This document shows positions 30,927-61,531 of a stretch of 64,000 nucleotides of DNA, in pieces; position 1 is the stretch's first letter; each line of letters opens with the position of its first letter. The position numbers and the translations under genes were made by a program. The notes below the pieces were generated by a model, which was given only the letters and a program-made list of their open reading frames with translations, was not told where the DNA came from and did not search any database. Where the stretch lies: contig JBBQKG010000003.1 of the NCBI GenBank assembly GCA_038326655.1, forward strand, positions 57,456 to 121,455, read 5' to 3'. The DNA comes from Solirubrobacterales bacterium (lineage in GTDB: Bacteria > Actinomycetota > Thermoleophilia > Solirubrobacterales > JBBDJG01).

Positions 30927-31730
30927 CTAGCGGCCCTCCCAGTTGGGCTTGCGCTTCTCGCCGAAGGCCCGGACGCCTTCGCGGAAGTCATGGGTGCGGA
31001 ACGAAGATAGTCGCAGATCTATGACTTCTTTTTCATGCGTTTTCGAAAGTCGGCTGAAGCCAGTCAGCCTTCCGATGATCTCCTTGTTGCCCCTCAGCGA
31101 GACGGGCGCGTGGCCCGCGATCTCGGCGGCCAGCGCGACCGCCGCGTCGTCGATCTGCTCTGGCTCGGCCACCTCGTGCACCAGCCCGATCTGCTCGGCG
31201 CGGTCGGCGTCGACGTTCCGCCCGGTGAAGAACAACTCACGCGTGCGCGCCGGGCCGACCGAGTCGATGAACTTTTGCAGCCCGGTATGGCTGTAGATCA
31301 GACCCAGCTTCGCCGGGGGCATCCCGAGCTTCACGCCGCGGGCCGCAATCCGCAGATCGCAGGTGAGCGCAAGCTCGAGGCCGCCGCCGAGCGCATGCCC
31401 GTTGACCGCTGCGAGGGTCGGGAACGGAAACGCCTCGACCGCCTCGATCGCCCGGCTGAAAGGGTGGGCGACGAGCCGCTCTGCCTCCTCGGCGAACACC
31501 TCGTCGGGGATATCGGCGATGTCGTAGCCCGCCGAGAACATGCCCTCGCTGCCGGCGATCACGACACAGCGGGTCTCGATGCCGTCGTCGAGCTCCGCCA
31601 TCAGCGTCGCGATCCCGTCGAGGATCTCGTGGTCGAGCGCGTTGCGCTTGGCCGGATTGCGGATCGTGACCCTGGCAACCGCCTCGGCCGGCCGATCGAG
31701 AACGAGCTTGCCTCCGGCAAGCTCGTTCAA
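30927..31730 (-). CDS. enoyl-CoA hydratase/isomerase (crotonase) family
   Basis: VARVTIRNPAKRNAL, FSAGYDI and NGHALGGGLELALTCDL. The ORF-track TTG 31751 lies inside a hairpin loop, so in-frame TTG 31730 is preferred. The start remains uncertain. Confidence 0.8.
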   Translation of the reverse strand: MNELAGGKLVLDRPAEAVARVTIRNPAKRNALDHEILDGIATLMAELDDGIETRCVVIAGSEGMFSAGYDIADIPDEVFAEEAERLVAHPFSRAIEAVEAFPFPTLAAVNGHALGGGLELALTCDLRIAARGVKLGMPPAKLGLIYSHTGLQKFIDSVGPARTRELFFTGRNVDADRAEQIGLVHEVAEPEQIDDAAVALAAEIAGHAPVSLRGNKEIIGRLTGFSRLSKTHEKEVIDLRLSSFRTHDFREGVRAFGEKRKPNWEGR

Positions 31731-31737
31731 GAAACTG

Positions 31738-31770
31738 CCGTCCGGCTGCAAGCACCCGGACGGGTGGCCT
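31738..31770. repeat. palindromic intergenic element, copy 1 (CCGTCCGGCTGCAAGCACCCGGACGG + GTGGCCT)
   Basis: 8-bp stem CCGTCCGG/CCGGACGG plus inner TGC/GCA. It lies 3' of the mini-BCCP gene on the minus strand. It is near-identical to the sequence at 35083..35120. Confidence 0.6.
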
Positions 31771-31797: not shown

Positions 31798-32010
31798 TCA
31801 TTCCAGCGTCACAAGCGTGTCACCCTCGGACACGGCCTGGCCCTCCTCGACGTTGACCTCTTTCACGACGCCCGCGTCCTCGGCCTCGACGGGCATCTCC
31901 ATCTTCATCGACTCGAGGATCACGACCGTGTCGCCCTCCTCGACCGAGTCGCCGGGCGACACTTCGACCTTCCACACCGTGCCGGTTATATGAGCCTCGA
32001 TCGCCGCCAA
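31798..32010 (-). CDS. small biotinyl-domain protein (stand-alone BCCP-like, about 70 aa)
   Basis: TTG 32010 lies 4 nt after GAAGGAG. HITGTVWKVEVSPGDSVEEGDTVVILESMKMEMPVEAE carries the biotinylation motif E-S-M-K-M. The longer 115-aa ORF prefix looks like shadow. Confidence 0.8.
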   Translation of the reverse strand: MAAIEAHITGTVWKVEVSPGDSVEEGDTVVILESMKMEMPVEAEDAGVVKEVNVEEGQAVSEGDTLVTLE

Positions 32011-47102: not shown

Positions 47103-48644
47103 ATGCCCGCGGTGCAGCCGGCTCCAAGAGGGCGTAACCCCTTCGACGACGGCGGGGTCGAGCGCGGTCCGGACGGCGTGATGCGCTACACGGAGCGCCC
47201 GGCCTCGCTGGTCGCGATGCTCCGTGCGAGCGTCGAGCGGGACCCCGGCCATCCGGCGATCGTGGAGATCGGCGCAGGGACGCTCACCTACCAAGCGCTC
47301 TGGGACCGTGCCGCGCGCGTCGCCGGCGGCCTTCGCGCGGAGGGCATCTCGCGCGGAGACCGGGTCGCGCTGAGGCTGCCGAACGGGCTCGATTGGGTGG
47401 TCGCGTTCTTCGGCGTCCAGCTGCTCGGCGCCGTCGTGGTGCCCGTCAACATGCGCTTCAAGGAGTCCGAGGTCGCCTACGTGATCGCGGATTCGGGCGC
47501 GGCATTCACCTTCGAGGAGGGCAACGCCCTGCCCGACGGCGATCCCGTCGCGGTCGCGGACCTCGAGCCGCAGGACCTCGCGGCGATCTTCTACACGAGC
47601 GGCACGACCGGCTTTCCGAAGGGCGCGATGACCTCGCACGAGAACTTCCTCTCGAACAGCGAGAACGCGATCCGCTGTCTGAGCGTCGACCGCGCGGAGG
47701 GACCGGCGCTCAGCACGCTGGTGTCGGTGCCGCTGTTCCACGTGACGGGCTGCAACAGCCAGCTGATCCCGCTGCTCGAGCTGGGCGGGCGCGTCGAGAT
47801 CCTGGTCAGCCCGCTCGACATCGACGGCTTCTTCGAGGCGCTCACCGAACACGGCGTGAACCAGCTCGTGTCGGTGCCGGCGATCTACCACGCCGTCACC
47901 CGCCATCCCCGCTTCGAAGAGCTCGACGTCCAGGGCGTGCGCTGGGTCTCATACGGAGGCGCTCCGATCGCGGAGAGCCTCGTGCGGCGGATCCAGGAGA
48001 GCTTTCCGAACGCCCGCGTCGGCAACGGCTTCGGGCTGACCGAAACGAGCTCGCTGACCTCCTTCCTGCCCCACGAGGAAGCTGCGGAACACGCGGACTC
48101 GGTCGGTTTCGCGATGCCGGTCGTCGACCTGGCGCTCCACGAGCCGAATCCGGACACGGGTGTCGGCGAGCTGCTGGTGCGTGGTCAGAACGTCGTGCAG
48201 GGCTACTGGAACAAGCCGGACGCGACGCGGGAGACCTTCGTCGAGGACTGGCTGCACACCGGCGACCTCGCGCGCATCGACGACGACGGGCTGCTCTACA
48301 TCGTCGACCGGGAGAAGGACATGATCAACCGCGGCGGCGAGAACGTGTACTCGATCGAGGTCGAGAACGCGCTCGCGGGCGCACCGGGCGTGGGAGAGGC
48401 GGCGGTCGTGGCGGTGCCGGACGAGATGATGGGCGAGAAGGTCGGCGCCGTGATCGTTCCCGGCGGCGGGGAGGCGGACCTCGACGTCGCCGCCGTGATC
48501 GCGCACGTCGCCGAGGGGATCGCGGACTTCAAGGTCCCGCAGTATGTTGCCGTGCGCGGCGAGCCGCTTCCGCGCAACCCGGGCGGCAAGGTGCTGAAGG
48601 CGCAGCTGCGGGAGGAGACCGACTGGGGCGATCCGCTCCGGTAG
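47103..48644 (+). CDS. AMP-dependent acyl-CoA synthetase/ligase
   Basis: AMP-binding motif IFYTSGTTGFPKGA, GFGLTET, TGDLARIDDDGLLYIVDREKD, and terminal GKVLK. Confidence 0.9.
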   Translation: MPAVQPAPRGRNPFDDGGVERGPDGVMRYTERPASLVAMLRASVERDPGHPAIVEIGAGTLTYQALWDRAARVAGGLRAEGISRGDRVALRLPNGLDWVVAFFGVQLLGAVVVPVNMRFKESEVAYVIADSGAAFTFEEGNALPDGDPVAVADLEPQDLAAIFYTSGTTGFPKGAMTSHENFLSNSENAIRCLSVDRAEGPALSTLVSVPLFHVTGCNSQLIPLLELGGRVEILVSPLDIDGFFEALTEHGVNQLVSVPAIYHAVTRHPRFEELDVQGVRWVSYGGAPIAESLVRRIQESFPNARVGNGFGLTETSSLTSFLPHEEAAEHADSVGFAMPVVDLALHEPNPDTGVGELLVRGQNVVQGYWNKPDATRETFVEDWLHTGDLARIDDDGLLYIVDREKDMINRGGENVYSIEVENALAGAPGVGEAAVVAVPDEMMGEKVGAVIVPGGGEADLDVAAVIAHVAEGIADFKVPQYVAVRGEPLPRNPGGKVLKAQLREETDWGDPLR

Positions 48645-48671
48645 GCGACCAGCGAGAGGGAGAGGAGAGCG

Positions 48672-49631
48672 ATGCCCACCGTCGAGACCGTTCAGGGGCC
48701 GGTCGATGCCGGCGACCTCGGCACCGTGCTGATCCACGAGCATGTGCGCTTCCGCGACGAAGCGGTCGCGGAGCAGTGGCCCGGCCGCTATGACGAGCAG
48801 GCCGAGCTCGACGCGGCAATCGAGGCCGTGGGCGCGGCCGCGGGCCACGGCGTGCGCACGATCTGCGACGCCACCGCGATGTTCGGAGGCCGTGACGTGC
48901 GCTTCATGCAGCGCGTCGTTCAGGAGACGGGCGTGCAGCTGATCGCCTGCACCGGGATCTACACGTACGACTATCTCCCGCATTACTTCGAGAACCGCAC
49001 CGTCGATCAGATTGCCGAGCTGTTCGTCAGCGACATCGAGGAGGGAATCCAAGGGACCGGCGCCAAGGCCGGGTTCCTGAAGTGCGCGGCCGATGCTGCC
49101 GGCGTCACCGACAACGTCGAGAAGGTGCACCGCGCAGTCGCGCGTGCGAGCGTGCAGACCGGAGCGCCGATCATGGCGCACTCGCGGCCCGCCAGCAATA
49201 CGGGACCGCGGCAGGTCGAGCTCTTCCGCGAGGAGGGCGTCGATCCGTCGAAGATCCAGATCGCGCACACCGGCGACACGGACGACCTCGACTACATCGA
49301 CGGATTGCTGCACGCGGGCGTGATGATCGGGATGGACCGCTACGGGCTCGAGATGTTCCTCCCGATGGACCGCCGCAACGCGACCGTGGCGGAGCTGCTG
49401 CGGCGCGGGCACGCCGACCGGATCGTGATGTCGCAGGACTTCTGCGCGACGATCGACTGGTTCCCGCCCGAGGCGGTCGAGGGGCTCGTGGAGCAGGGGC
49501 TCGTGCGCAACTGGAGCATGACGCTCGTGTTCGAGGAGGTCCTGCCCGCGCTACGCGAGGACGGGGTCCTAACCGACGAGCACGTGCGCACGATGTTCGT
49601 CGAGAACCCTCGCCGCTGGCTCGCTGGTTAG
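48672..49631 (+). CDS. phosphotriesterase-like lactonase family (amidohydrolase fold)
   Basis: SD GAGGGAGAGGAG upstream. Metal ligands LIHEHV, carbamylated-Lys context AGFLKCAA, PIMAHS, IAHTGD and MSQDF. Confidence 0.85.
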   Translation: MPTVETVQGPVDAGDLGTVLIHEHVRFRDEAVAEQWPGRYDEQAELDAAIEAVGAAAGHGVRTICDATAMFGGRDVRFMQRVVQETGVQLIACTGIYTYDYLPHYFENRTVDQIAELFVSDIEEGIQGTGAKAGFLKCAADAAGVTDNVEKVHRAVARASVQTGAPIMAHSRPASNTGPRQVELFREEGVDPSKIQIAHTGDTDDLDYIDGLLHAGVMIGMDRYGLEMFLPMDRRNATVAELLRRGHADRIVMSQDFCATIDWFPPEAVEGLVEQGLVRNWSMTLVFEEVLPALREDGVLTDEHVRTMFVENPRRWLAG

Positions 49632-50795
49632 CGGCGGCACCTTCGGCGCAAGGCCGGCGCGGCGCGCCGCCTGCGCTCGTGTCACCGGGGCGCGGCCCCA
49701 CCGCGCGACCTGCGCGTAGTCGAGCAGCCGGTCGAAGTAGGTCTCGATCGGCGCAGCCGTCACTCCCACCGGCTCGAGCGCTCGTCGTGCCTGCTCGTTC
49801 GCATATCTGACCCGCATCGAGAAGTACGGGAAGAACGCGCGGCTGCGGTCGAGCCCCTCACGCAGCTTTCCGCCGCGGCGGCGCAGCAGCGGGTCGACGA
49901 TCGTGCGGAACAGGGGCGGCGGGATCACGACCGGCTCCCGCCGCTCCATGCGCTCGGCCGAGAGCTCGAGCAGCCGGCCGACGGTGGTCGCCAGCGGGCC
50001 GGCGACGAGGTTGTAGGCCCGAAGCCGGTCGACCGGGCGCCGGCAGAGCTCGAAGACGGCATCGGCGACGTAGTCGACGGGCACCACGTCGACCGGCGCC
50101 GACCGGCGGGCGGGAAGGGCGTGGAGCGACCCCCGCGCGAACGCCTTGAGCGGCGAGTAGAGCACGTTGAAGGCGGCCGTCCAGCCGGTCCGGCGATCCC
50201 CGACCACGATGCTCGGGCGGAAGACCTGGATCGGGAGACGGTCGCCGTGCGCGCGCACGAGTCGCTCCGCCTCGAACTTCGACTGCTCGTAGGCATTCCT
50301 GAATCGCTGCCCCACGTCCAGCTGCTCCTCGGCGAACTCGCCGGCGCAGGCTCCCGCCACGTAAGCGGTCGAGATGTAGCCGAGACAGTCGAGGCCGCCG
50401 CGGCGGCGGCAGAGGTCGGCGAGGCGGAGAATCTCCTCCGTGCCGGAGACGTTGATGTGCCGCGAGCGGTCGAGCGGCAACGCGAACGAGACCGAGGCCG
50501 CCGAGTGCACGATGTCGGTGACGCGTTCGGTGAGCGCGTCGCGGGTCCATCGATCGAGCCCCAGCCCTGGCTCCTCGATGTCTGCACGAACCGCCGCGAG
50601 ACGGTTCCGGTAAGCGTCGGGCGCCCCGCAGAGCCCTTCCACCGTCGCCCGCAGGCGTTGGTCCGCCTCCGCGTCGTCGCGCGCCCGCACCGCCACCAAC
50701 ACCGGCCGGTCGGTGCGCTCCAGGTATCGCGCAAGGATCTCCGTCCCGACGAATCCCGTCGCGCCTGTCAGCAGGACTGCGCCTTGCGGGCTCAT
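49569..50795 (-). CDS. fatty acyl-CoA/thioester reductase (SDR, NAD_binding_4 type)
   Basis: VLLTGATGFVGTEIL, HSAASVSF and the catalytic YEQSK. The 3' end overlaps the convergent lactonase gene by 63 nt. Confidence 0.8.
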   Translation of the reverse strand: MSPQGAVLLTGATGFVGTEILARYLERTDRPVLVAVRARDDAEADQRLRATVEGLCGAPDAYRNRLAAVRADIEEPGLGLDRWTRDALTERVTDIVHSAASVSFALPLDRSRHINVSGTEEILRLADLCRRRGGLDCLGYISTAYVAGACAGEFAEEQLDVGQRFRNAYEQSKFEAERLVRAHGDRLPIQVFRPSIVVGDRRTGWTAAFNVLYSPLKAFARGSLHALPARRSAPVDVVPVDYVADAVFELCRRPVDRLRAYNLVAGPLATTVGRLLELSAERMERREPVVIPPPLFRTIVDPLLRRRGGKLREGLDRSRAFFPYFSMRVRYANEQARRALEPVGVTAAPIETYFDRLLDYAQVARWGRAPVTRAQAARRAGLAPKVPPLTSEPAARVLDEHRAHVLVG

Positions 50796-50810
50796 CTCGG
50801 ATCCTCCTTG

Positions 50811-52169
50811 CTAGCGGGAAAGGGCGACCAGCTCGTCGAGCGACTGGTCGATCGCGTCCGCGACGAGGTCGGCGTCGGGAAGCGCCTCGCGGTCCGCGTA
50901 GATGCCGAAGAAAGCGTCGTCCCGGATCGTCGTGACGCCGATCGACAACGCATGCCGGTCGGCGATCGGCACGACGGGGTAGGCCTCCTCCAGCTCGCAC
51001 CCGAGCATGTACATCGGCTCACTCGGGCCGGGGATGTTCGAGACCGTGAGGTTGAAGACGAGGGGGCTCGCGATCACGCCCGAGAAGGCGTTGCGCACAG
51101 GCTGGGGCAGGTAGCCGATCGCGTCGAAGATCGCCTCCACCCAGTGCGCGTCCTCGTGGTCCTTCCGGCCGGCCGTCTCGGCGTGGATCGAGCGAAGCCG
51201 CCGAGCCGGGTCGGCCTCGTCGCAGGGCAGGTCGACGAACATGAACGAGATCCGGTTGCCCGCGTCGCCGTTCTCGCCCGCACCGCGCACGTTCACCGGG
51301 ACCATCGTCTTGAGCGGCACCGGCCGCTCCGCATGGCGCTCGAGCAGGCGGCGGACGCCGCCGGCCGAAGCGGCCAGCACGACATCGTTGATCGTGGTTC
51401 CGAAGCTCGCCTTGACGAGCCTGAGGTCCTGCAGCGGCCGCCGCGCGGTGGCGAGGTGCCGGAGCGGCGAGATCGGCGCGTTCAGCGCCGGCACAAGCGG
51501 CGCCGGGCGCAGCATCCCGGCGGCGGACCTGGCCGCGGTCGCGGCGATCTGCGCGGCCGTCAGCGGGGATCGCGCGACCCGCGCGGGCAGGCCGAGGATG
51601 CCGAGGTCGCCGCGCAGCTGGTCGACCACGCCGCCGACCATGCGGCTGAGCCCGGAAGGCTTCGGCTCGGGAGACCATCTGTCCGGAGCGGCCGGCTCCG
51701 GCTCGGGCGTCGGGTCGAGCAGGAGCGCCGCGAGCTCGACGGCGGCGATCCCGTCGACCATGCAGTGGTGAACCTTGCCGACCACGCCGATCCGGCCGTC
51801 GTCGAGTCGGTCTGCGATGCAGAGCTGCCACAGGGGGCGCCGGCGGTCGAGCTGCCGGGACATGCAGTCGTCGATCGCCTCGCCGAGTGTTGCGGAGCTC
51901 GCCCGCACGATATGGCGCGCCGGGTCGAAGTCCTCGTCGTCGATCCAGAGCGGTGCGTTCAGGCCGAGCGGGACCGAGGCCAGGCGCTGGCGGAAGCGCC
52001 GGCCCCGGCAGAGCCGGCCCTCGATGTGCCGGAAAAGGTCCTCGAACTCAGGGCGCGGCCCCTCGTCCGGGGGCCGGAAGGTCGTGGCCCAGCCGACGTG
52101 CATGTGCGCGGTCGAGCTCTCGACCGCGAGAAACGAGGCGTCAAGTGGCGACAGCCGGGTTGTTGACAT
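50811..52169 (-). CDS. wax ester synthase/diacylglycerol acyltransferase (WS/DGAT)
   Basis: ATG 52169 (MSTTRLSPLDASFL). Catalytic HHCMVDG, and NDVVLAA in the C-terminal domain. Confidence 0.88.
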   Translation of the reverse strand: MSTTRLSPLDASFLAVESSTAHMHVGWATTFRPPDEGPRPEFEDLFRHIEGRLCRGRRFRQRLASVPLGLNAPLWIDDEDFDPARHIVRASSATLGEAIDDCMSRQLDRRRPLWQLCIADRLDDGRIGVVGKVHHCMVDGIAAVELAALLLDPTPEPEPAAPDRWSPEPKPSGLSRMVGGVVDQLRGDLGILGLPARVARSPLTAAQIAATAARSAAGMLRPAPLVPALNAPISPLRHLATARRPLQDLRLVKASFGTTINDVVLAASAGGVRRLLERHAERPVPLKTMVPVNVRGAGENGDAGNRISFMFVDLPCDEADPARRLRSIHAETAGRKDHEDAHWVEAIFDAIGYLPQPVRNAFSGVIASPLVFNLTVSNIPGPSEPMYMLGCELEEAYPVVPIADRHALSIGVTTIRDDAFFGIYADREALPDADLVADAIDQSLDELVALSR

Positions 52170-52363
52170 TGCGACCCCCCGGGTCTGGTTCCGATTGACT
52201 TGGATTCGAGCGGGCCGGCCGGCCGTCTCCTCCGGCGGCATCGCGACAGGCGCACCCGCGGCAGTTAGAGCGTTCTGCCCAGCGATCACACCCGGAAACG
52301 CAGAAAGTTCTTAGAAACTGCGCAAATTGGCCGAAAGAACGATCCCGCTAGATTGCAGCGCCC

Positions 52364-53512
52364 CTACAGGCCCAGCTGCCGGCCGATGATCTCCTTCATG
52401 ATCTCGTCGGTGCCGCCCCCGATCGGCCCCAGGCGGGCGTCGCGCAGGGCACGCTCGACGTCGTACTCGCGCATGTAGCCGTAGCCGCCGTGCAGCTGGA
52501 CCGCCTCGTCGGCCACCTCGACCGCGGCGCGGCAGGCGAGCAGCTTCGCGCTCGAGACCTCGCGCAGCGCGTCCTGGCCCGAGACGAGCAGACGCAGGCC
52601 GTGGTAGGTGAGGTCCCGGCAGGCCTCGATCTTGGTCGCCATCGCCGCGATCTTGTGGCGAACGGCCTGGAAGCGCCCGATCGGCCGCCCGAAGGCCTCG
52701 CGCTCCTTGACGTATGCGAGCGTGCGCTCGAAGGTCGCCTGCATGCCCCCGACCGCTCCGAGCGCCATCGCGAGGCGCTCCCACTGGAAGTTGGCCATGA
52801 TCAGGTAGAAGCCCTTGTTCTCCTCGCCGAGCAGGTTCTCCGCGGGCACGCGCACGTCGGAGAACGACAGCTCGCCCGTGTCCGAGGCATGCCAGCCGAG
52901 CTTCTCCAGCTTCCGCGAGACCTCGAACCCCGGCATGCCCTTCTCGAGCACCAGGAACGAGATCCCGTGGTGCCCGCCGTCGGGCGTGGTCTTCACCGCG
53001 GTCACATAGAAGTCCGCGCGCACGCCGTTGGTGATGAACGTCTTGGACCCGTTCACGACGTACTCGCCGTGCTCGAGGCGGGCGCTGGTCTTCAGGCCGG
53101 CGACGTCGGAGCCCGCGCCCGGCTCGGTGATCGCGAGCGCGCCGATCTTCTCGCCCCTGATCGCCGGCGCAAGCCAGCGCCGCTTCTGCTCGTCGGTCCC
53201 GAACTTGTCGATCGGCGGCGTCGCGATCCCGACATGGGCGCCGATCCCGGCCGCCACTCCCCCCGAGCCACACCGCGCCATCTCCTCGGCGAACACGGCA
53301 CCGTGCACGGTGTCGCCGCCCTGGCCGCCGTACTCCTCGGGATAGGTGAGGCCGAGGAAGCCCAGCTCGCCCATGCGGGTGTACAGCTCACGCGGAAACT
53401 CCTCCGCCGCCTCCCAGGCGGGGGCATGCGGGCGGATCTCGCGTTCGACGAACGTCCGCAGCGACTCGCGCAGCGCCTCGTGCTCCTCGGTGAACGGCGG
53501 GATCAGCATCAT
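52364..53512 (-). CDS. acyl-CoA dehydrogenase
   Basis: ATG 53512 overlaps the upstream stop (ATGA). AITEPGAGSD, GSKTFITNG, GGYGYMREYDVERALRDAR, and the catalytic-Glu context IGGGTDEIM. Confidence 0.9.
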   Translation of the reverse strand: MMLIPPFTEEHEALRESLRTFVEREIRPHAPAWEAAEEFPRELYTRMGELGFLGLTYPEEYGGQGGDTVHGAVFAEEMARCGSGGVAAGIGAHVGIATPPIDKFGTDEQKRRWLAPAIRGEKIGALAITEPGAGSDVAGLKTSARLEHGEYVVNGSKTFITNGVRADFYVTAVKTTPDGGHHGISFLVLEKGMPGFEVSRKLEKLGWHASDTGELSFSDVRVPAENLLGEENKGFYLIMANFQWERLAMALGAVGGMQATFERTLAYVKEREAFGRPIGRFQAVRHKIAAMATKIEACRDLTYHGLRLLVSGQDALREVSSAKLLACRAAVEVADEAVQLHGGYGYMREYDVERALRDARLGPIGGGTDEIMKEIIGRQLGL

Positions 53513-53988
53513 GCGCGGACCCGGTCTGCCGCGTCGTGGCCCGCGCCGTCACGCTCGCGCGCCTCGTCCCAGCCCTTCAGCGTCGTGTAGCCGCGTCCGG
53601 CGTGGTCGAAGCCCAACAGGTTCCCCTGGCGGTTGGCGGCGTCGGAGTGGTGGTAGGCGCGGACCTCCGCGATCAGGCCGTCGCGAACCACGAACCACTC
53701 GGTGCCGCGGTCGATCCGCTGCTCGCCGCCGTGGCGGGCATCGCGCCAGAGCATCGTCCACTCGATCACGACCTCCTCGCCCTGCTCGATCGCGTGCTCC
53801 AGGTGCCAGCTCGCGTCGAGGTGCTTCACCCCCTGCTCGGTGATCTCGCCGATCTCACGAGCGCTGCGGTGCGGGCCGAGGCGCGTGTAGTAGTGGTTCG
53901 CGTCGGGCTGGAAGTGACGCGCGACCTTCTCGACGTCACCTGTGTTCAGGTCGCGGTAGTAGGCCCTGACCCGCTCGAGCGGTGTCAT
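53509..53988 (-). CDS. NTF2-like (SnoaL-type) protein
   Basis: ATG 53988 (MTPLERVRAYYRDLNTGDVEKVARHF). Typical SnoaL start with a cone-like alpha+beta pattern (EWFVVRDGLIAEVRAYH). Confidence 0.65.
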   Translation of the reverse strand: MTPLERVRAYYRDLNTGDVEKVARHFQPDANHYYTRLGPHRSAREIGEITEQGVKHLDASWHLEHAIEQGEEVVIEWTMLWRDARHGGEQRIDRGTEWFVVRDGLIAEVRAYHHSDAANRQGNLLGFDHAGRGYTTLKGWDEARERDGAGHDAADRVRA

Positions 53989-53993
53989 GTCGT

Positions 53994-54428
53994 TCACGTA
54001 ATCCCTCCCAGTAGCCGGACGAAGTGGAAGCTCGCGATCGTGTACCGCTCGCGGAAGTAGAAGCGGTGCGCCTTGCGGCGCTGCACGCCGGAGCCGAGGT
54101 GGATCGACCCGCAGCCCTCGTTGCGGGCAAGCTCGACGAGGTAGGTGTTCAGCAGCCGGCCATAGCCGTGCGAGCGCCAGGCTTCGGCGGTGACCAGGTC
54201 GTCCACGTACATGTGGAGGCCGCTGACCAGGTTCGTGAAGAGGCGATAGCCCGCCGCGGCGCGGCACTCGTCGCCGTCGAACAGGGCCGCCAGCCGGTAG
54301 CCCTGCGGATGGCCCGCCTCGTACCGCCGCCGGAACTCGGGCTCGTCGAGCTCGGTGCGGAGCTGCTGCATCACCGGGAAGACGGCCGCAAGGCGGGGGT
54401 CCCCCGGCGGGACCTCGAGGATGTCCAC
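53994..54428 (-). CDS. GNAT-family N-acetyltransferase
   Basis: GTG 54428. Acetyl-CoA-binding motif VTAEAWRSHGYGRLLN and C-terminal AHRFYFRERY. Confidence 0.7.
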   Translation of the reverse strand: MDILEVPPGDPRLAAVFPVMQQLRTELDEPEFRRRYEAGHPQGYRLAALFDGDECRAAAGYRLFTNLVSGLHMYVDDLVTAEAWRSHGYGRLLNTYLVELARNEGCGSIHLGSGVQRRKAHRFYFRERYTIASFHFVRLLGGIT

Positions 54429-54430
54429 CC

Positions 54431-55618
<1,188 letters not shown>

Positions 55619-55635
55619 ACGACCTCCCGGAAAAC

Positions 55636-55664
55636 TTGACAGGCTGGTCGGGCAAAGCTACAAG
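55636..55664 (+). promoter_or_regulatory. sigma-70-like promoter TTGACA-17 nt-TACAAG for the plus-strand operon
   Basis: Consensus -35 hexamer at 55636-55641 and TACAAG at 55659-55664, in an AT-enriched divergent intergenic region. Confidence 0.4.
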
Positions 55665-55684
55665 AAGCCTTCGGAAAAGTAAAC

Positions 55685-55700
55685 AGTAGGACTTCCTACT
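55685..55700. promoter_or_regulatory. 16-bp palindrome AGTAGGA-ct-TCCTACT (candidate operator)
   Basis: Perfect 7-bp arms ending 6 nt before ATG 55707. It lies downstream of the putative promoter, so it would sit on the 5' UTR/SD region. Confidence 0.4.
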
Positions 55701-55706
55701 TCCCGC

Positions 55707-56492
55707 ATGCCCAACTTCGAGACGCTTCTCTACGACACCGGCGACGGCGTTGCGACGATCACGCTGAACCAGCCGGAGACGCGTAACGCCCTCTCCAACG
55801 AGCTGCTCGGCGACCTGCTCGCGGCCTTCGAGACGGCGCGCGCCGACGGCGAGGTCCGGTGCGTGGTGCTGACCTCCTCGCACGAGACGGTCTTCTCCTC
55901 CGGCGCGAACCTGGCCGGCTTCGCGGCCGACGTGCCGATCGTCCATCGCCACTTCGGCACGGAGCGCTTCGTGAAGTTGTTCCGTCTGATCGGGACGCTC
56001 GGCAAGCCCAGCATCTGCGCCGCCAACGGCCACGTGCTCGCGGGTGCGCTCGGGATCGCGCTCGCCTGTGACCTGATCGTGGCGAAGGAGGGAGCGACGT
56101 TCGGAACGCCCGAGATCAACGTCGGCGCGTTTCCCTTCATGATCATGGCGCTGATCTACCGGAATGTCCCGCGCAAGAAGACGAACGAGCTGCTCCTGCT
56201 CGGGGACCGGATCGACGCGCGCGAGGCCGAGCGCATCGGGATCGTCAACAGGGTCGTGCCCGAGGCGGAGTTCGACGCCGCGGTGCGCGAATGGGCGGCG
56301 AAGCTGGCCTCGAAGTCGCCGGTGATCATGCGACTCGGCAAGGACGCGATGTACCGGCAGCTCGACATGCCCTTCGAGGACGCGCTCGACTACCTGCGGT
56401 CCCAGCTCAGCCTCGCGATGACCACCGAGGACATCCTCGAGGGCGTGCAGGCGTTCTTCGAAAAGCGCGAACCAAACTGGAAAGGACGGTAA
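55707..56492 (+). CDS. enoyl-CoA hydratase (crotonase family)
   Basis: VATITLNQPETRNAL, FSSGANL, ANGHVLAGALGIALACDL, and the C-terminal FFEKREPNWKGR. Confidence 0.88.
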   Translation: MPNFETLLYDTGDGVATITLNQPETRNALSNELLGDLLAAFETARADGEVRCVVLTSSHETVFSSGANLAGFAADVPIVHRHFGTERFVKLFRLIGTLGKPSICAANGHVLAGALGIALACDLIVAKEGATFGTPEINVGAFPFMIMALIYRNVPRKKTNELLLLGDRIDAREAERIGIVNRVVPEAEFDAAVREWAAKLASKSPVIMRLGKDAMYRQLDMPFEDALDYLRSQLSLAMTTEDILEGVQAFFEKREPNWKGR

Positions 56493-58232
56493 ATGGATAA
56501 ACAGGGTTCCGCCGAGTCGAGCAAGGTCGACTCGGCGGGGGAGAGCAAGGATGGGAAGGCAAAGCCCGACCCGCAGCTGGAGCAGCAGCGCGCCGTCGTC
56601 GCCGAGGCCGGCCGCGAGGCGACCGACACCGAGCACCCGAGTGAGGTGCCCTCGGCGCCACTCACCGACCACGGCGAGCAGAGCGGCCTGAAGAGCCTCG
56701 TCGAAGACCTCCACGGCCGCCGCGCGAAGATCAAGCTCGGCGGCGGCGAGGAGAAGATCGAAAGCCAGCACGGGAAAGGGAAGCTGACTGCGAGGGAGCG
56801 CATCGACCTGCTCGTCGACCGTGGCACGTTCGTGGAGATCGGCATGCACGGCCGCCCGCACTTCTCCCAGCGCTCGATGGAGGGGCGCGAAGCGCCCGCG
56901 GACGGCGTGATCACGGGATGGGGAGAGGTGGACGGCCGCCGGAGTGCGATCGCAGCCTACGACTTCACCGTGATGGCCGGCTCGATGGGCATGACCGGAG
57001 AGATCAAGGTGGGCCGGCTGCGCGAGATGGCGCTCCAGAAGCGGATGCCGTTCATCTGGCTCCTGGATTCCGCGGGCGCGCGCATCCAGGAGGCGGTCGG
57101 CTCGCTGTTCGCCGGCTCTGGCCACCTCTTCCGCGAGGAGGTGATCATGTCCGGCTGCATTCCGCTGGTGGCCGGCATGCTGGGGCCGTGCGCGGCCGGC
57201 ACCGCCTACATCCCCGGCCTTGCAGACTTCGTCCCGATGGTCTCCGGTCAGGGCTCGATGGCGCTTGCGGGACCGCACCTCGTGAAGGCCGTGACCGGCG
57301 AAGACGTCACCCAGGAGGAGCTCGGCGGCGCCAAGATCCACTGCCGCAAGTCCGGCGTGGGAGACCTCGAGGTGGCCGACGACCGCGAGTGCATCGAGGC
57401 GATCAAGACCTACCTGTCGTTTTTCCCCGCGAACTGCGAGGAGCAGCCCCCGATCCGTCCCACCACCGATCCGGTCGACCGCATGGACGAGGCGCTGCTG
57501 GACATCGTGCCCGAGTCCCCCCGGCATCCGTACAACATGTACGACGTGATCGAGCGGATCGTCGACGACGGCGAGTACTTCGACATCAAGCCGAAGTTCG
57601 CCCGCACGATCATCACCTGCCTCGCGCGTTTCGGGGGACGGCCGGTGGGCATCGTCGCGAGCCAGCCCAAGCAGCTGGCCGGCATCCTCGAGAACGACTC
57701 GGCCGACAAGGCGGCGCGCTTCGTGAACCTCTGCGACGCGTTCAACGTCCCGCTGGTGTTCCTGCAGGACGTGCCCGGCTTCATGGTCGGCACGAAGGTC
57801 GAGCAGGAAGGCATCATCCGCCATGGGGCCAAGATGCTCTACGCGGTCTCGCGCGCGACCGTGCCGAAGATCACGGTCGTGATCCGCAAGGCATACGGCG
57901 CCGGCTACTACGTGATGAACGGCCGGGCGTACGAGCCGGACCTGATCGTGGCCTGGCCGGGCGCGGAGATCTCGGTGATGGGCGCGGAGGGCGCGGTGAA
58001 CATCATCTTCCGCAAGCAGATCGACGCCGCCGAGGACCCGGACGCGGAGCGCCAGAAGCTGGTCGACAACTTCAAGGCGATCATCGATCCGTACATCTCC
58101 GCCGGGAACGACATGGTGGACGACATCATCGACCCGCGTGAGACCCGGCCGCGGATCATCCGCGGCCTCGAGATGGCGGCGACGAAACGCGTCGACCGGC
58201 CGTGGAAGAAGCACGGCGTGATGCCGGTGTGA
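56493..58232 (+). CDS. acyl-CoA carboxylase carboxyltransferase (AccD/PccB-like beta subunit)
   Basis: ATG immediately follows the upstream TAA. QHGKGKLTARERIDLL, DFTVMAGSMG, WLLDSAGARIQE, PGFMVG, and the C-terminal DDIIDPRETR. About 65 aa of acidic, low-complexity sequence extends the N-terminus. Confidence 0.88.
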   Translation: MDKQGSAESSKVDSAGESKDGKAKPDPQLEQQRAVVAEAGREATDTEHPSEVPSAPLTDHGEQSGLKSLVEDLHGRRAKIKLGGGEEKIESQHGKGKLTARERIDLLVDRGTFVEIGMHGRPHFSQRSMEGREAPADGVITGWGEVDGRRSAIAAYDFTVMAGSMGMTGEIKVGRLREMALQKRMPFIWLLDSAGARIQEAVGSLFAGSGHLFREEVIMSGCIPLVAGMLGPCAAGTAYIPGLADFVPMVSGQGSMALAGPHLVKAVTGEDVTQEELGGAKIHCRKSGVGDLEVADDRECIEAIKTYLSFFPANCEEQPPIRPTTDPVDRMDEALLDIVPESPRHPYNMYDVIERIVDDGEYFDIKPKFARTIITCLARFGGRPVGIVASQPKQLAGILENDSADKAARFVNLCDAFNVPLVFLQDVPGFMVGTKVEQEGIIRHGAKMLYAVSRATVPKITVVIRKAYGAGYYVMNGRAYEPDLIVAWPGAEISVMGAEGAVNIIFRKQIDAAEDPDAERQKLVDNFKAIIDPYISAGNDMVDDIIDPRETRPRIIRGLEMAATKRVDRPWKKHGVMPV

Positions 58233-58654
58233 CGACGGTCGGTGAGAACGAGGTGCTCGTCCGGCGGTTGGTGGATGCGTTCAACCACCTCGACGTCGAG
58301 CCCGTGATGGACGCTCTCGACCCCGATTGCGAGCTGCACGAGTGGCCCACGGCGCCGGGCGCGCGAAGCTACCACGGTCACGACGGCGTTCGTTCCGCCC
58401 TCGACACCTGGTTCGAGAGCTGGGATTGGATGCAGATCGAGATTCTCGAGCTCGTCGCGCGCGGGGACCGCCTGTTGGTCGTCCTGCATCAGCGCGCGAT
58501 GGGCAAGGGCAGCGGGGTCGAGGTCGAGATCAAGTCGTTCAACGTCTACACCTTCCGGGCGGGCAAGCTGCTGCGCATGCAGATGTTCACCGAAGAGGAG
58601 CCCGCGCTCGAGGCCGCCGGCCTGACCCTGAACCACGAGGAGGAGAAGCGATGA
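58229..58654 (+). CDS. NTF2-like (SnoaL-type) protein
   Basis: GTG 58229 overlaps the upstream stop (GTGA). NEVLVRRLVDAFNHLDVEPVMDALDPD and FNVYTFRAGKLLRMQMF. Confidence 0.65.
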   Translation: MTTVGENEVLVRRLVDAFNHLDVEPVMDALDPDCELHEWPTAPGARSYHGHDGVRSALDTWFESWDWMQIEILELVARGDRLLVVLHQRAMGKGSGVEVEIKSFNVYTFRAGKLLRMQMFTEEEPALEAAGLTLNHEEEKR

Positions 58655-59595
58655 GCCGTTTCGAGGACCCGGTGATCATCACGTGCTCGATCTCGGGCGC
58701 GGTCGCCAACCGCGACCAGTGCCCGGCGATCCCCTACACGCCCGAGGAGTACGCGGCCGAGGCGCGCCGGATCGTCGACGAGGGCGGATCGGCAATCCAC
58801 ATCCACGCGCGAACGCCCGACGGCGTGCCGAGCTACGAGGTCGAGGACTTCCGCAACATCACCGACGCGATCCTCACCGAGGTGGGCGACGTGATCGTCA
58901 ACTACTCGACCGGCGCGATCGGCGTGCCGATCGAGAAGCGCCTGCAGTACCTCCGCGAGCTGCGGCCAGAGGTGGGCGCGCTGAACATGGGCTCGATGAA
59001 CTACGCGAAGTACTCGAAGCGGCGCAAGAGCTTCGTGTTCCACACGGTGTTCGAGAACTCGTTCGAGACGATCATCACCTTTCTCAACGAGATGAACGAG
59101 CTCGGCATCAAGCCCGAGCACGAGTGCTTCGACTCCGGGCACATCGCCAACCTCGACCCGCTGATGGACATGGGCCTCCTGCGCGAGCCGCTGCAGGTCT
59201 CCTGCGTGATGGGCGTGACGGGTGGGATCCGGCCGAACGCGCGAAACCTCGCGCACATGTCGGAGCAGCTGCCCGGCGGCGCCCGCGGGCCGAACAACTG
59301 GGGCGTGATCGGGATCTCGCGCGACCAGTGGATGCTCGGCGCGGCAGCGCTGACGCTCGGCGGGAACGTGCGCGTCGGCCTCGAGGACAACTTCTACCTC
59401 CCGAACGGCGAGATGGCGCGGTCGAACGGCGACCTGATCGCCAAGGCGCGCCAGATGGTCGAGGACATCGGCCGGCGGGTCGCGACCGTCGAGGAGGCAC
59501 GAGCGATGCTGGGCATAGAGAAAATGGCGTGGCCGCCGCTGGCGGCGGCCACGGTCGCAGGGGGCGCGGGCGGCGGCACGGCCGCGGTAGGATGA
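58651..59595 (+). CDS. beta-keto acid cleavage enzyme (BKACE/DUF849, 3-keto-5-aminohexanoate cleavage enzyme family)
   Basis: ATG 58651 overlaps the upstream stop (ATGA). VIITCSISGAV, Zn-ligand pattern AIHIHAR, and VRVGLEDNFYLPNGE. Confidence 0.8.
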   Translation: MSRFEDPVIITCSISGAVANRDQCPAIPYTPEEYAAEARRIVDEGGSAIHIHARTPDGVPSYEVEDFRNITDAILTEVGDVIVNYSTGAIGVPIEKRLQYLRELRPEVGALNMGSMNYAKYSKRRKSFVFHTVFENSFETIITFLNEMNELGIKPEHECFDSGHIANLDPLMDMGLLREPLQVSCVMGVTGGIRPNARNLAHMSEQLPGGARGPNNWGVIGISRDQWMLGAAALTLGGNVRVGLEDNFYLPNGEMARSNGDLIAKARQMVEDIGRRVATVEEARAMLGIEKMAWPPLAAATVAGGAGGGTAAVG

Positions 59596-59603
59596 GGTAG
59601 GCG

Positions 59604-60803
59604 ATGGCGCACCGCCCGCTGGAAGGACTGCGCGTCCTCGATTTGACTCGGCTGCTCCCCGGAGGGTTCTGCACGTTGCTGCTGGCCGACCTCGGCGCCG
59701 ACGTGCTGAAGGTCGAGGACACCGCGGGCGGCGACTACATCCGCTGGATGCCGCCCTACTACGGCGGCGACGCCGAGCATGCGAACGGGACCGCGTCGGC
59801 CTACTTCCTGGGGCTCAACCGCAACAAGCGCTCGCTGAAGCTGAACCTCAAGCGCCCCGAAGGGCGCGACATCCTCCTGCGCCTCGCCGAGGATCACGAC
59901 GTGCTCGTGGAGAGCTTTCGCCCCGGCGTGATGGACCGGCTCGGCGTCGGCTACGAGGCGGTGGAGAAGCGGAATCCACGGTTGGTGTACTGCGCGATCT
60001 CCGGTTACGGCCAGAACAGCCCCCTGCGCGAGCGCTCGGGCCACGACACCAACTACCTCGCGCTGGCGGGGCTGCTCGGGCTGACCGGCCACCGAGACGG
60101 CCCGCCGGTCCAGTCGGCGGGGCAGATCGCCGACCTCGGGGGTGGGGCGCTGATGGCAGCGGTCGGGATCCTCGCGGCCCTGCGCGAGCGCGAGCGCTCG
60201 GGCGCCGGGCAGGTCGTCGACATCTCGATGACCGACGGTGCCACGTCGTGGCTTGCGATGGTGATCGCGCGCTACTTCTGCGAGGAGGTGGTCCCTCGCC
60301 GCGGCGAGGTCGAGCTTGCGGGTGGGATCCTCTGCTACTTCCCCTACGAGACCAAGGACGCCCGCTGGATGTCGCTGGGCGCGCTCGAGCCGAAGTTCTG
60401 GCAGAACTGGTGCGAGGGCACCGGCCGGCAGGACCTGGTCGACAAGCAGTTCGAGCACCCGCACTCCGAAGCAGGAGCCGAGGTCGCGGCAATGTTCCGC
60501 GAGCGCACCCGCGACGAGTGGACCGCGTTCGCCGGCGAGCACGACTGCTGCCTCGAGCCGGTGCTCGACCTCGACGAGGCGCTCACGCACGAGCAGGCGG
60601 TCGCGCGCGGCATGGTGTTGGAGCTCGACCAGCCGGGGATCGGCCCGGTTCGCCAGGCGGGCTTCCCGATCGCGCTCTCGCGCACGCCCGCGAAGGTCGA
60701 GCGGCCGGCGCCGGCACTGGGGCAGCAGACCGACGAGGTGCTCGCAGCGATCGGCTACGACCCCGAGCGAATCGCTGCCCTGCGCGCCGAGGGAGTCGTG
60801 TGA
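59604..60803 (+). CDS. family III CoA-transferase (CaiB/BaiF, alpha-methylacyl-CoA racemase-like)
   Basis: LEGLRVLDLTRLLPGGFCTLLLADLGADVLKVE, NRNKRSL, GHDTNYLALAG and DISMTDG. Confidence 0.88.
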   Translation: MAHRPLEGLRVLDLTRLLPGGFCTLLLADLGADVLKVEDTAGGDYIRWMPPYYGGDAEHANGTASAYFLGLNRNKRSLKLNLKRPEGRDILLRLAEDHDVLVESFRPGVMDRLGVGYEAVEKRNPRLVYCAISGYGQNSPLRERSGHDTNYLALAGLLGLTGHRDGPPVQSAGQIADLGGGALMAAVGILAALRERERSGAGQVVDISMTDGATSWLAMVIARYFCEEVVPRRGEVELAGGILCYFPYETKDARWMSLGALEPKFWQNWCEGTGRQDLVDKQFEHPHSEAGAEVAAMFRERTRDEWTAFAGEHDCCLEPVLDLDEALTHEQAVARGMVLELDQPGIGPVRQAGFPIALSRTPAKVERPAPALGQQTDEVLAAIGYDPERIAALRAEGVV

Positions 60804-61531
60804 GCGCGCCTCCCTCGCAGAACGGTGAGCTGCTTCGGATGCGCGAGCTCGCGGAGGCCGCGGGCGTGCCGGCGGGGACGATCAAGCACTACCTGCGCGA
60901 GGGCCTCCTGCCCGAGCCCGTGAAGACGTCGCGGAACATGGCGTGGTACCCGCGGGACTTCGTCGAGCGGGTGCAGGTCATCAAGCAGCTTCAGGAAGAG
61001 CGGTTCCTGCCGCTCAAGGTGATCCGCGAGGTGCTCGAGAACGGCGGCGTCGAAGGCCCGGAGCGGCTGCGCGCGATGGTCGAGCTCGAGGACCGGATCC
61101 TCGAACGCGCGCTTTCCGGGCAGGACTCGACGGGATTGAGCGCGCGTGAGGCGAAGCGCCGCTACGGGCTGCCCGAGGAGGCGCTCGACCGCCTCGAGAA
61201 GCTCGGCGTCCTCTCGCCCGCTCGCCGAAATGGCGCGAAGCGGTACGGGCCCGCCGATGTGCAGATCATCGAGGCGGTGAGCCGCATGCGCGCATCCGGG
61301 TACTCGGAGGCGCTCGGCTTCACCGTGCACGACACGATGATCTACAAGCGCCACCTCGAGCGGCTCGTGCACGAGGAGGTCGAGGTGATGATGGAGCGGG
61401 TCGCGGGGGAGATGGACACGGACGCCGCCGCCGACCTGCTCGAGCGCGCGGTCGAGCCGATGCGGGACCTCGTCGCGGCGATGCGGGCGAAGCTGATGAT
61501 CGCCGAGCTGCAGGCGCGGCGGGCGCCGTAG
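60800..61531 (+). CDS. MerR-family transcriptional regulator
   Basis: GTG 60800 overlaps the upstream stop (GTGA). HTH LRMRELAEAAGVPAGTIKHYLREGLL, followed by a long helical C-terminal domain. Confidence 0.8.
   Translation: MSAPPSQNGELLRMRELAEAAGVPAGTIKHYLREGLLPEPVKTSRNMAWYPRDFVERVQVIKQLQEERFLPLKVIREVLENGGVEGPERLRAMVELEDRILERALSGQDSTGLSAREAKRRYGLPEEALDRLEKLGVLSPARRNGAKRYGPADVQIIEAVSRMRASGYSEALGFTVHDTMIYKRHLERLVHEEVEVMMERVAGEMDTDAAADLLERAVEPMRDLVAAMRAKLMIAELQARRAP

Follow-up and report, generated by a model that had tools for sequence, protein, structure and literature searches.

Background

How would a gene cluster laid out like an operon for leucine or isovalerate degradation carry out its carboxylation and its final carbon-carbon cleavage if it encodes neither a biotin carboxylase (BC) nor a lyase? 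The question is raised by ten genes at positions 52364 to 61531 of a 64-kb stretch of contig JBBQKG010000003.1 from a Solirubrobacterales bacterium; this whole stretch, with a GC content of about 69%, is referred to below as the window, and all positions are numbered within it. A sequence-only reading of the window had likened the locus to liu/atu-type operons, had remarked on the two missing components, which we likewise found neither in the locus nor anywhere in the 64 kb, and had put forward two explanations. In the first, the carboxyltransferase (CT) of the locus works with a distant biotin subunit and a β-keto acid cleavage enzyme (BKACE) takes over the end of the pathway; in the second, the CT acts as a decarboxylase. 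Here we report that the locus is a real, conserved and uncharacterised gene cluster of soil actinobacteria of the class Thermoleophilia. Our best reading, in which we place about as much confidence as doubt, is that of a liu-type pathway with its biotin parts supplied in trans and with BKACE in the slot of the lyase.

The liu/atu operons, for example liuRABCDE of Pseudomonas, follow the same enzyme logic, from acyl-CoA dehydrogenase (ACAD) through biotin carboxylase and crotonase to a C-C cleavage that yields acetoacetate, and a regulator of the MerR or TetR family is likewise present in BKACE clusters. They differ in having an HMGL-like lyase in the slot that BKACE occupies here; in addition, the CT described here is PccB-like overall, its crotonase has one of the two catalytic glutamates, the biotin carboxyl carrier protein (BCCP) is encoded 24 kb away and BC is absent from the window. 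With the known members of the BKACE family (Kce, the dehydrocarnitine and the 3-oxoadipate enzymes) the window protein shares a full-length match and intact zinc and catalytic residues, whereas its proposed substrate is a CoA thioester of the 3-hydroxy-3-methylglutaryl-CoA (HMG-CoA) type and not a free β-keto acid, the kind of substrate on which the characterised BKACEs act (PMC4922564, PMC11961710).

The gene association itself has been noticed before, not explained. In the supplement of the NetSyn preprint, a BKACE context assigned to ASMC group G3, a mixed group without a single substrate signature, forms cluster 1 and is annotated 'Pathway to discover, probably fatty acid biosynthesis'. 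Its taxa are α- and β-proteobacteria, a few Actinobacteria and one member of the Thermoleophilia, and its genes are listed as ACAD, carboxyl transferase, 'carbamoyl-phosphate synthase', ECH, acyl-CoA ligase and short-chain dehydrogenase/reductase (SDR). The 'carbamoyl-phosphate synthase' corresponds to the ATP-grasp fold of BC, and this context matches the clusters described below in its ACAD, carboxyl transferase, BC-type ATP-grasp protein and ECH.

Results and discussion

The gene cluster and its conservation

Gene calls were checked by Pfam and NCBIfam scans and gene junctions were read from the sequence; the ten genes and their order came out as first described. On the plus strand, a gene for a crotonase-fold protein, ECH1 (55707..56492; Pfam ECH_1, 205 bits), is followed without spacer (0 nt) by the CT gene (56493..58232), which encodes an acyl-CoA carboxylase β subunit of 579 amino acids (aa; Carboxyl_trans, 568 bits). 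A GTGA overlap (-4) leads to a SnoaL_2/NTF2-like gene, the second of the locus (58229..58654; 54.8 bits in Pfam), and an ATGA overlap (-4) from there to the gene for BKACE (58651..59595; PF05853), a 314-aa zinc enzyme with a TIM-barrel fold that cleaves C-C bonds. After 8 nt (+8) comes a family III CoA-transferase-fold enzyme of 399 aa (59604..60803; CoA_transf_3, 374 bits), to which a MerR-family regulator of 243 aa (60800..61531; MerR_1, 92.7 bits) is coupled by another GTGA (-4). All five junction values agree exactly with those given earlier. On the minus strand, ACAD2 (54431..55618, 395 aa, identified by Pfam) diverges from the plus-strand operon as its conserved partner. Two nucleotides separate it from an accessory gene for a GNAT acetyltransferase of 144 aa (53994..54428, start confirmed; Acetyltransf_1, 45.9 bits), which is followed by an accessory SnoaL_2/NTF2-like gene (53509..53997, start at 53997 with GTG or at 53988 with ATG; SnoaL_2, 44.7 bits) and, across an ATGA junction, by ACAD1 (52364..53512, 382 aa; Acyl-CoA_dh_N/M/1).

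To assess conservation, we searched 80 species-level genome loci with the window proteins (tblastn) and added locus L081 and 41 metagenome loci. The core order, with ACAD2 divergent from crotonase, CT, BKACE, family III enzyme and MerR, recurs in this set and is seen in almost every locus whose length allows it to be judged, an arrangement far beyond chance. Conservation of the neighbourhood in relatives had been proposed as a test of the locus, and the objection that gene order might not be kept fails, since the core order recurs across the related loci, including the 80 from genomes. Altogether, over 580 species-level genomes carry the cluster, as do thousands of metagenome contigs, and the closest BKACE homologs (75-93% identity) all come from metagenome-assembled genomes (MAGs) of Thermoleophilia/Solirubrobacterales.

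Around this core the gene set is graded. ACAD2 is kept in most loci at 59-90% identity, ACAD1 in about half of them at 60-86%, and the first, minus-strand SnoaL gene in roughly a third. Outside the window, L001 and L081 were the only loci with the GNAT gene, and the second SnoaL gene was confined to these two and to L031 and L050; the gene set as initially drawn is widespread in its core, and the GNAT and the second SnoaL are accessories of close relatives. Downstream of the operon a CN-hydrolase gene is syntenic in most loci, but because variable genes separate it from the operon we left it out of the system.

A BKACE subfamily tied to acyl-CoA carboxylases

The window BKACE matches its Pfam profile over positions 1-274 of 274 (304 bits against a cutoff of 24.8). 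His50, His52, Glu158, Glu245 and Asp246 align with the corresponding residues of solved BKACEs and, like the HIH and GLED motifs that had been pointed out, are invariant in 81 orthologs. Its scores against the NCBIfam equivalog models for Kce, the 3,5-dioxohexanoate enzyme and the 3-oxoadipate enzyme all lie below the cutoffs, and no BKACE that has been solved or screened exceeds about 40% identity to it. When a library was clustered at the 50% identity level, the subfamily of the window BKACE stood as one cluster of its own, the next full-length BKACE clusters being 47-48% identical and generic BKACEs about 40% or less. Members share 51-61% identity with each other and were monophyletic relative to generic BKACEs in a rough neighbour-joining tree. 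An exact-sequence look-up of the window BKACE gave no match; tblastn against plasmids returned only matches of less than 40% identity, and the two plasmid contexts that were inspected (Mycobacterium riyadhense and Variovorax) were unrelated to the cluster.

Look-up of subfamily members and scans of metagenomes showed this BKACE in three layouts, in each case together with an acyl-CoA carboxylase CT and the same single-Glu crotonase. The window itself exemplifies type A (80 genome loci and 41 metagenome loci). In type B the order is crotonase, PccB-like CT, a variable slot, BKACE and a 70-aa BCCP, behind which there is often a second, canonical crotonase; the CT is 63-64% identical to that of the window and carries the motif GAGY[YF]VMNG, and the slot holds a VOC protein (Glyoxalase_6, directly after the CT in L082), a 4HBT thioesterase, an α/β hydrolase or nothing. 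Most type B clusters have a BCCP flanking BKACE and no BC, but in L086 and L087 an AccC-type BC stands at the head of the operon, overlapping the crotonase start, and the 70-aa BCCP at its end. Type C (11-13 loci, among them L141 and L176, with a GC content of 44-59%) reads TetR, ACAD, ACAD, CT, BC, BCCP, crotonase, BKACE, in some cases MaoC, ACAD and a Liv-type ABC transporter. Its CT scores 679 bits against the methylcrotonyl-CoA carboxylase (MCC) β subunit of P. aeruginosa, 663 against human MCCB and at most 266 against the β subunit of propionyl-CoA carboxylase (PCC), by which alignment scores it is a true MCC-β; no HMGL-like gene was found in the type C clusters. A fourth arrangement, BKACE, ACAD2 ortholog, ACAD1 ortholog and TetR, was also encountered, L084 having a 61% ACAD2 ortholog after BKACE and a 55% ACAD1 ortholog next to BKACE.

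Several further features of these loci were recorded. In the type B loci L082, L086, L088 and L091 a gene for a PdtaS-type histidine kinase (GAF_PdtaS/HWE) follows the BCCP gene, with WhiB, Ku and sigma-factor genes near. The nearest representative in the 50% clustering, P0138 (48% identity), has IQVLDR in place of IHIHAR and is probably a non-catalytic or repurposed paralog, because the His-x-His zinc motif is lost. Within the 3' end of the window BKACE gene lies a GC-rich hairpin with an 11-bp stem (59528-59553, minus strand); this region codes for an Ala/Gly-rich C-terminal tail, the window BKACE being some 10-15 aa longer than most of its orthologs.

A proposed liu-type pathway with BKACE at the lyase step

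Since CT, crotonase and BKACE form a constant triad accompanied by ACADs, and since type C clusters contain a genuine MCC and no lyase, we place BKACE at the lyase step of a liu-type pathway. We see roughly equal chances of being right and wrong in proposing a widespread, so far uncharacterised variant of the leucine/isovalerate (liu/MCC-type) pathway, of which the locus would be the version found in Thermoleophilia. In such a pathway, ACAD2 and ACAD1 would desaturate a short, probably 3-methyl-branched acyl-CoA. The enoyl-CoA would then be carboxylated by a three-part carboxylase made of the CT, a 70-aa BCCP and an AccC-type BC encoded outside the window, a split organisation that the comparison with related genomes shows; the choice of substrate is suggested by MCC-β-like loops in the CT and by the sister clusters with a true MCC-β. 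The single-Glu crotonase would hydrate 3-alkylglutaconyl-CoA to 3-hydroxy-3-alkylglutaryl-CoA (HMG-CoA in the case of leucine), which BKACE would cleave in place of HMG-CoA lyase to acetoacetate and acetyl- or acyl-CoA.

The last of these proposals is a natural one chemically and draws on the BKACE mechanism, from which we infer that the enolate of acetyl-CoA adds to the keto group of the zinc-bound β-keto acid to give a 3-hydroxy-3-alkylglutaryl-CoA. With acetoacetate this adduct would be HMG-CoA, and an enzyme that bound the adduct from solution would carry out the lyase reaction. Finally, the family III enzyme may move CoA, onto acetoacetate or between the carboxyls of an HMG-type intermediate, or may epimerise a CoA ester; thioesterases or hydrolases fill the equivalent place in sister clusters. 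Elsewhere in the window, the product of a thiolase gene (14068-15285) could take acetoacetyl-CoA from the proposed pathway.

A mosaic carboxyltransferase

As a whole protein the CT is not of the MCC type. Compared with the Protein Data Bank (PDB), it aligns over its full length, at about 50% identity, with PCC-β, acetyl-CoA carboxylase (ACC) β subunits, the transcarboxylase 12S subunit and MmdA (470-522 bits; 493 for 12S), and more weakly with MCC-β (280-340 bits), GCC-β (268) and GcdA (112-140). The NCBIfam mmdA subfamily model gives 603 bits. Its active site departs from this picture. Tyr473 occupies, by alignment, the specificity position of M. extorquens Asp407, which we take to be equivalent to S. 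coelicolor Asp422, so that the residue typical of PCC (Asp, or Ile in ACC types) is not present. Both oxyanion-hole loops were compared in an alignment with PCC-βs and with the MCC-β-type CTs of related clusters. Loop 1 reads GPCAAGTAYIP in the window, as against GLCTAGAAYIP in the MCC-β type and GPCAGGxVYSP in the PCC-β type; loop 2 reads YGAGYYVM[CN]G[KR]AYEP, as against FGAGNYGMCGRAYSP and GGAY[DI]xM..SKHxGAD, respectively. The CT thus has the motifs CAAG and GAG and not the GG and GGA of the PCC type, and the window-type loop motifs are invariant in 56 orthologs. Judged from these alignments, the CT appears to be a mosaic, a PccB-like scaffold with MCC-β-like active-site loops and Tyr473, and MCC-type chemistry for the window's own cluster is plausible, not proven. 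The resemblance to MCC-type subunits holds for the loops and not for the protein as a whole, which is PccB/12S-like and not MCC/GCC-like. An acidic, low-complexity N-terminal extension of some 60 aa (56493-56690) is absent from PCC-β structures and is not conserved, varying in length and sequence among orthologs.

These data bear directly on the strongest competitor of the liu-type pathway, an ordinary PCC role. Here the CT would carboxylate propionyl-CoA released by the pathway within a supercluster for branched- and odd-chain acids, and the family III enzyme or the VOC protein would epimerise (S)-alkylmalonyl-CoA. We consider it unlikely, if still worth serious weighing, and we are just as doubtful of its corollary that BKACE and the crotonase work on a separate intermediate. 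The global scores of the CT to PCC-β, 12S and MmdA and its mmdA match speak for such a role, as do the complete set of catalytic residues of the racemases MCR and AMACR in the family III enzyme and the VOC protein that follows the CT in L082. Location is no obstacle to it either: in actinobacteria β subunits encoded away from the biotin subunits are normal, and AccD subunits routinely share α subunits encoded elsewhere. It is the active site and the gene context that argue the other way. The CT differs from PccB/AccD5-type enzymes in Tyr473, which stands for their Asp, Ile or Cys, and in xAG and GAG motifs for their xGG and GGA, both loops being of the MCC-β type, and its probable partners are a split BC and a 70-aa BCCP and not a fused AccA. 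Moreover, it is translationally coupled between crotonase and BKACE, in the slot held by the true MCC-β of type C, and no methylmalonyl-CoA mutase gene was found nearby.

A related observation concerns L175 (4988-10332), from the same metagenome as L088. It contains, in this order, genes for a family III enzyme with the racemase signature (GHDINY, GDFGGG, EPKF), a Carboxyl_trans protein 34-37% identical to the window CT, a degenerate Carboxyl_trans protein and an AccC-type BC 67% identical to that of L086. This arrangement suggests an AccC-type BC that is shared between CTs, and a repeated pairing of racemase-like family III enzymes with carboxyltransferases.

Crotonase, dehydrogenases and family III enzyme

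Alignment to 5zai and 1uiy shows that in ECH1 Gly116 replaces the first catalytic glutamate and that Glu136 is kept. Gly116, Glu136 and His109 are invariant in 68 orthologs, and the same substitution of the first glutamate is shared with the crotonases of type B and type C clusters; in this the protein departs from the two-Glu crotonases of the methylglutaconyl-CoA hydratase type.

The two ACADs carry the C-terminal motif IGGGTDEI and a glutamate in ..WERL.. (ACAD1) and the motifs IGAGTDEI and ..GERL.. (ACAD2). Both presumably have Gly or Ala at the position of Glu376 of MCAD and a helix-G glutamate in '..ERL..', as we take to be the case in isovaleryl-CoA dehydrogenase (IVD) and LCAD. The best PDB matches of ACAD2 are uncharacterised ACADs (356 bits), ahead of LCAD (286) and IVD (276-281).

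The family III enzyme is a hybrid of the CoA-transferases of its family (SUGCT, Frc, CaiB) and the racemases (MCR/Far, AMACR). Its closest solved relative is SUGCT, the succinate-hydroxymethylglutarate CoA-transferase (213 bits), with which its N- and C-terminal regions align best; M. tuberculosis Far (208 bits) and MCR/AMACR (193) follow closely. Its motifs GHD, ADLGGG and GALEPKFW (His147/Asp148, Asp177 and Glu262) align with MCR/Far segments, whereas SUGCT has GYD and lacks the glutamate, and these catalytic residues are invariant in 75-77 orthologs; we take them to correspond to His126/Asp127, Asp156 and Glu241 in the numbering of M. tuberculosis MCR. Asp177 also aligns with the conserved catalytic Asp of family III CoA-transferases. 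The earlier label of CaiB/BaiF CoA-transferase is borne out by the CoA_transf_3 fold and this aspartate and is called into question by the full racemase set; because transferase-like length and insertions are combined with the catalytic residues of a racemase, the activity cannot be read from the sequence.

The slot between CT and BKACE, occupied by a SnoaL protein in the window, is taken by a VOC protein, a 4HBT thioesterase or an α/β hydrolase in other lineages. Such genes enter into a second competitor, a BKACE route resembling carnitine degradation, in which an acid would be activated by transfer of CoA, desaturated by an ACAD, hydrated by a crotonase and released, then oxidised elsewhere to a β-keto acid that BKACE cleaves with acetyl-CoA into acetoacetate and a shorter acyl-CoA, the CT only processing this product. 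The combination of ACAD, crotonase, family III enzyme and BKACE mirrors caiA, caiD and caiB plus dehydrocarnitine cleavage (NetSyn supplement), and the thioesterases and hydrolases of the sister clusters would furnish free acids, the form used by all characterised BKACEs (PMC4922564). A 3-hydroxyacid or 3-hydroxyacyl-CoA dehydrogenase is missing from the conserved core, however, and what invariably accompanies the BKACE subfamily is a biotin carboxylase component and not a CoA-transferase. The Cai models give 113-220 bits against cutoffs of 413-540. We judge the route quite improbable in this general form, and a carnitine/γ-butyrobetaine (cai-like) pathway proper was rejected on the scores far under the cutoffs, the missing dehydrogenase and the invariant carboxylase partner.

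Probable biotin parts in trans

For the liu-type pathway the carboxylase must be completed from elsewhere. No BC came to light in the 64-kb window, whether by motif scan, by tblastn from a related BC or in Pfam scans that covered almost every large open reading frame (ORF), and no BC homolog lies within ±10 kb in the 80 related loci. The same Pfam scans found no HMGL_like domain in the window ORFs, and there was none in the related clusters. A stand-alone BCCP gene, in contrast, is present 24 kb upstream of the locus (31798..32010, minus strand). It was found by motif scan and codes for 70 aa with an SMKM motif; it matches Pfam Biotin_lipoyl and, with 84.7 bits against a cutoff of 75, the 71-aa NCBIfam model PRK05889. 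The protein shares 49-56% identity with the BCCPs encoded immediately after BKACE in L082, L086, L088 and L091. Downstream of its gene lies that for ECH2 (30927..31751, minus strand; ECH_1, 164 bits), a canonical two-Glu-type crotonase with the motif GGGLELALTCD. The same BCCP-ECH2 pair occurs in L091, L094, L098, L104, L105, L113 and L171, and in type B clusters it follows BKACE. These similarities make the window BCCP the probable carrier for the CT.

A BC in trans is exemplified by MAG GCA_964560135.1. Its cluster, L082, has no BC, and an orthologous BC, 71% identical to that of L086, stands alone on another contig (L174), preceded by HD-domain, guanylate-cyclase and response-regulator genes, the same that precede the BC in L086; from this comparison BC would appear able to serve in trans. 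The split organisation presumably has a counterpart in yngJIHGFE of Bacillus subtilis, with separate BC (YngH), small BCCP (YngHB) and CT (YngE). The order of BCCP and PdtaS-type kinase noted above in type B loci recalls what we take to be the neighbourhood of Rv3221c and pdtaS (Rv3220c) in the Rv3219-Rv3223c region of M. tuberculosis; to our knowledge, that species has no BKACE-CT cluster beside Rv3221c. The window BCCP may resemble the product of Rv3221c (TB7.3, 71 aa), to judge by the PRK05889 model. Rv3221c has been named a putative BCCP (PMC3048393).

Near the BCCP-ECH2 pair the window contains further biotin genes: bioB (25717-26910), about 5 kb away, and close to it a class I/II aminotransferase gene that may be bioF-like (24458-25927). 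A MacB/FtsX-type ABC exporter (27625-30926) separates them from the pair.

Of the two explanations originally offered, that of a distant biotin subunit with a BKACE end-game is favoured on comparative grounds, through the type B and type C clusters and the BC in trans, once the attributions of CT, crotonase and CoA-transferase are corrected. Its counterpart, the CT as a decarboxylase, is not favoured, given that related clusters have a BC gene within them or close by. The same evidence weighs on a wider version of that idea, a BC-independent system of CT, BCCP and BKACE acting as a decarboxylase or in the manner of transcarboxylase (12S, 1.3S and a metal TIM barrel), which we hold to be very improbable. 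CO2 would here pass between biotin and a β-keto acid bound to the zinc of BKACE. We give equally little credence to BKACE as a physical or catalytic partner of the biotin system, analogous to the 5S subunit, with the biotinyl-lysine arm entering the acetyl-CoA channel, and equally little to an exchange of CO2 between a zinc-bound β-keto acid and an acyl-CoA in such a partner. What makes these ideas worth stating is that most type B clusters have a BCCP and no BC beside BKACE, so that a 5S analogue would explain why BKACE is nested between CT and BCCP genes there; the CT scores well against 12S, and BKACE is a metal TIM barrel that acts on β-keto acids as the 5S subunit acts on oxaloacetate. 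Yet BC is part of the operon in L086, L087 and all type C clusters and is encoded elsewhere in the L082 genome, BKACE has kept all its residues for acetyl-CoA chemistry, and we know of no biotin-dependent activity in the BKACE family. Scans of the window and of related loci turned up no gene of the 5S type (HMGL-like/PYC_OADA). A context of fatty acid biosynthesis, the label that NetSyn cluster 1 carries, is scarcely credible for a gene content that is catabolic, with ACADs, crotonases, TetR/FadR- or MerR-type regulators and Liv-type uptake and without genes for acyl carrier protein, ketosynthase or FabD.

Weighing the proposed liu-type pathway

Several observations count against the liu-type pathway with BKACE at the lyase step. 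The carboxylase is incomplete on present evidence, since no BC was found in the window. The CT is by its overall scores much closer to PccB, 12S and MmdA than to MCC-β, and the case for MCC-type chemistry therefore comes down to its two loops. ECH1 lacks the first hydratase glutamate, which known methylglutaconyl-CoA hydratases have, and its single-Glu pattern would also fit isomerases, hydratase-lyases and decarboxylases. We know of no BKACE that cleaves HMG-CoA, and the thioesterase, hydrolase, VOC and family III genes hint at a free-acid intermediate or at an epimerisation of the methylmalonyl type.

Should the liu-type pathway prove right, a major soil lineage would degrade leucine-type branched acids without HMG-CoA lyase, Thermoleophilia/Solirubrobacterales being among the commonest soil actinobacteria. 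Cleavage of the final C-C bond would be a new physiological role for the BKACE family, the orphan 70-aa actinobacterial BCCP of the TB7.3 type would gain a candidate partner, and a surveyed 'pathway to discover' context would receive a concrete, testable proposal. The CT, with MCC-like loops on a PccB scaffold, would offer a natural case for the specificity of α- versus γ-carboxylation. The points that appear to be new are the case for the lyase slot made from MCC-type clusters, the mosaic nature of the CT, the separation of BC and BCCP together with the finding of the BCCP in the window, the unusual signatures of crotonase and family III enzyme and an operator motif described below.

Synthetic carbon-fixation designs create a further demand for BKACEs (PMC11961710), so that a new subfamily with a defined role would have practical value. 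In the synthetic CORE cycle, carboxylation of acetyl-CoA leads to malonate semialdehyde, from which BKACE produces formyl-CoA (PMC11961710). A natural counterpart of this cycle was considered for the cluster and dropped, as there is no malonyl-CoA reductase and type C has a true MCC-β.

Control region and regulator

The two operons diverge from a shared control region of 88 bp (55619..55706), whose GC content of 52%, compared with 69% for the locus, confirms the AT enrichment that had been reported. It contains a perfect palindrome, AGTAGGACTTCCTACT, at 55685..55700, with its 3' end 7 nt before the ATG of the crotonase gene. The palindrome was found by eye and in the alignment; an inverted-repeat tool missed it and a hairpin scan caught it. 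The motif is unique in the window, where 0.02 matches are expected, and motifs of the type AGTAnnACTTCnTACT lie upstream of the crotonase gene in 39 related loci. From its symmetry and recurrence the palindrome is a probable operator. A scan for sigma-70 promoters found no match, and Rfam and tRNA scans returned nothing relevant, one ARAGORN call inside the family III gene being spurious.

The regulator would probably control both operons through this palindrome, and its gene stands 3' of the family III gene in most loci. It had been taken for a LiuR-type MerR protein. A length of 243 aa, a best NCBIfam match to FtsR (52 bits) that stays under the cutoff and a faint Rv1828_C match in the L081 ortholog lead us to regard it as Rv1828/FtsR-like and not LiuR-like.

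Surrounding genes in the window

In the close relative L081 an aldehyde dehydrogenase gene directly abuts ACAD1; in the window some 7.5 kb of additional genes intervene (44819-52289). They encode a metallophosphoesterase, two unannotated ORFs, an acyl-CoA synthetase (47103-48644), a phosphotriesterase-family protein (48672-49631), a fatty acyl-CoA reductase (49569-50795) and a WS/DGAT wax-ester synthase (50811-52289), and the whole looks like an inserted wax-ester/lipid module. The block before it (41263-44739), with an NMO-family oxidoreductase, an SDR and an aldehyde dehydrogenase of the succinic-semialdehyde type that scores above the NCBIfam PRK09407 cutoff, also flanks the cluster in L081. 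The neighbouring aldehyde dehydrogenase was considered as a malonate-semialdehyde dehydrogenase and rejected, being succinic semialdehyde dehydrogenase-like.

Other genes of the β-oxidation type lie further upstream (4331-7431 and 14068-15734) and code for a zinc alcohol dehydrogenase, a MaoC dehydratase, an ACAD of 474 aa, the thiolase mentioned above and an SCP2 protein. Towards the beginning of the window, a tRNA-Pro gene (CGG; 957-1032) overlaps the predicted start of a MEDS-domain/HATPase ORF (region 999-3663), after which come genes for a cupredoxin-like protein and a multicopper oxidase.

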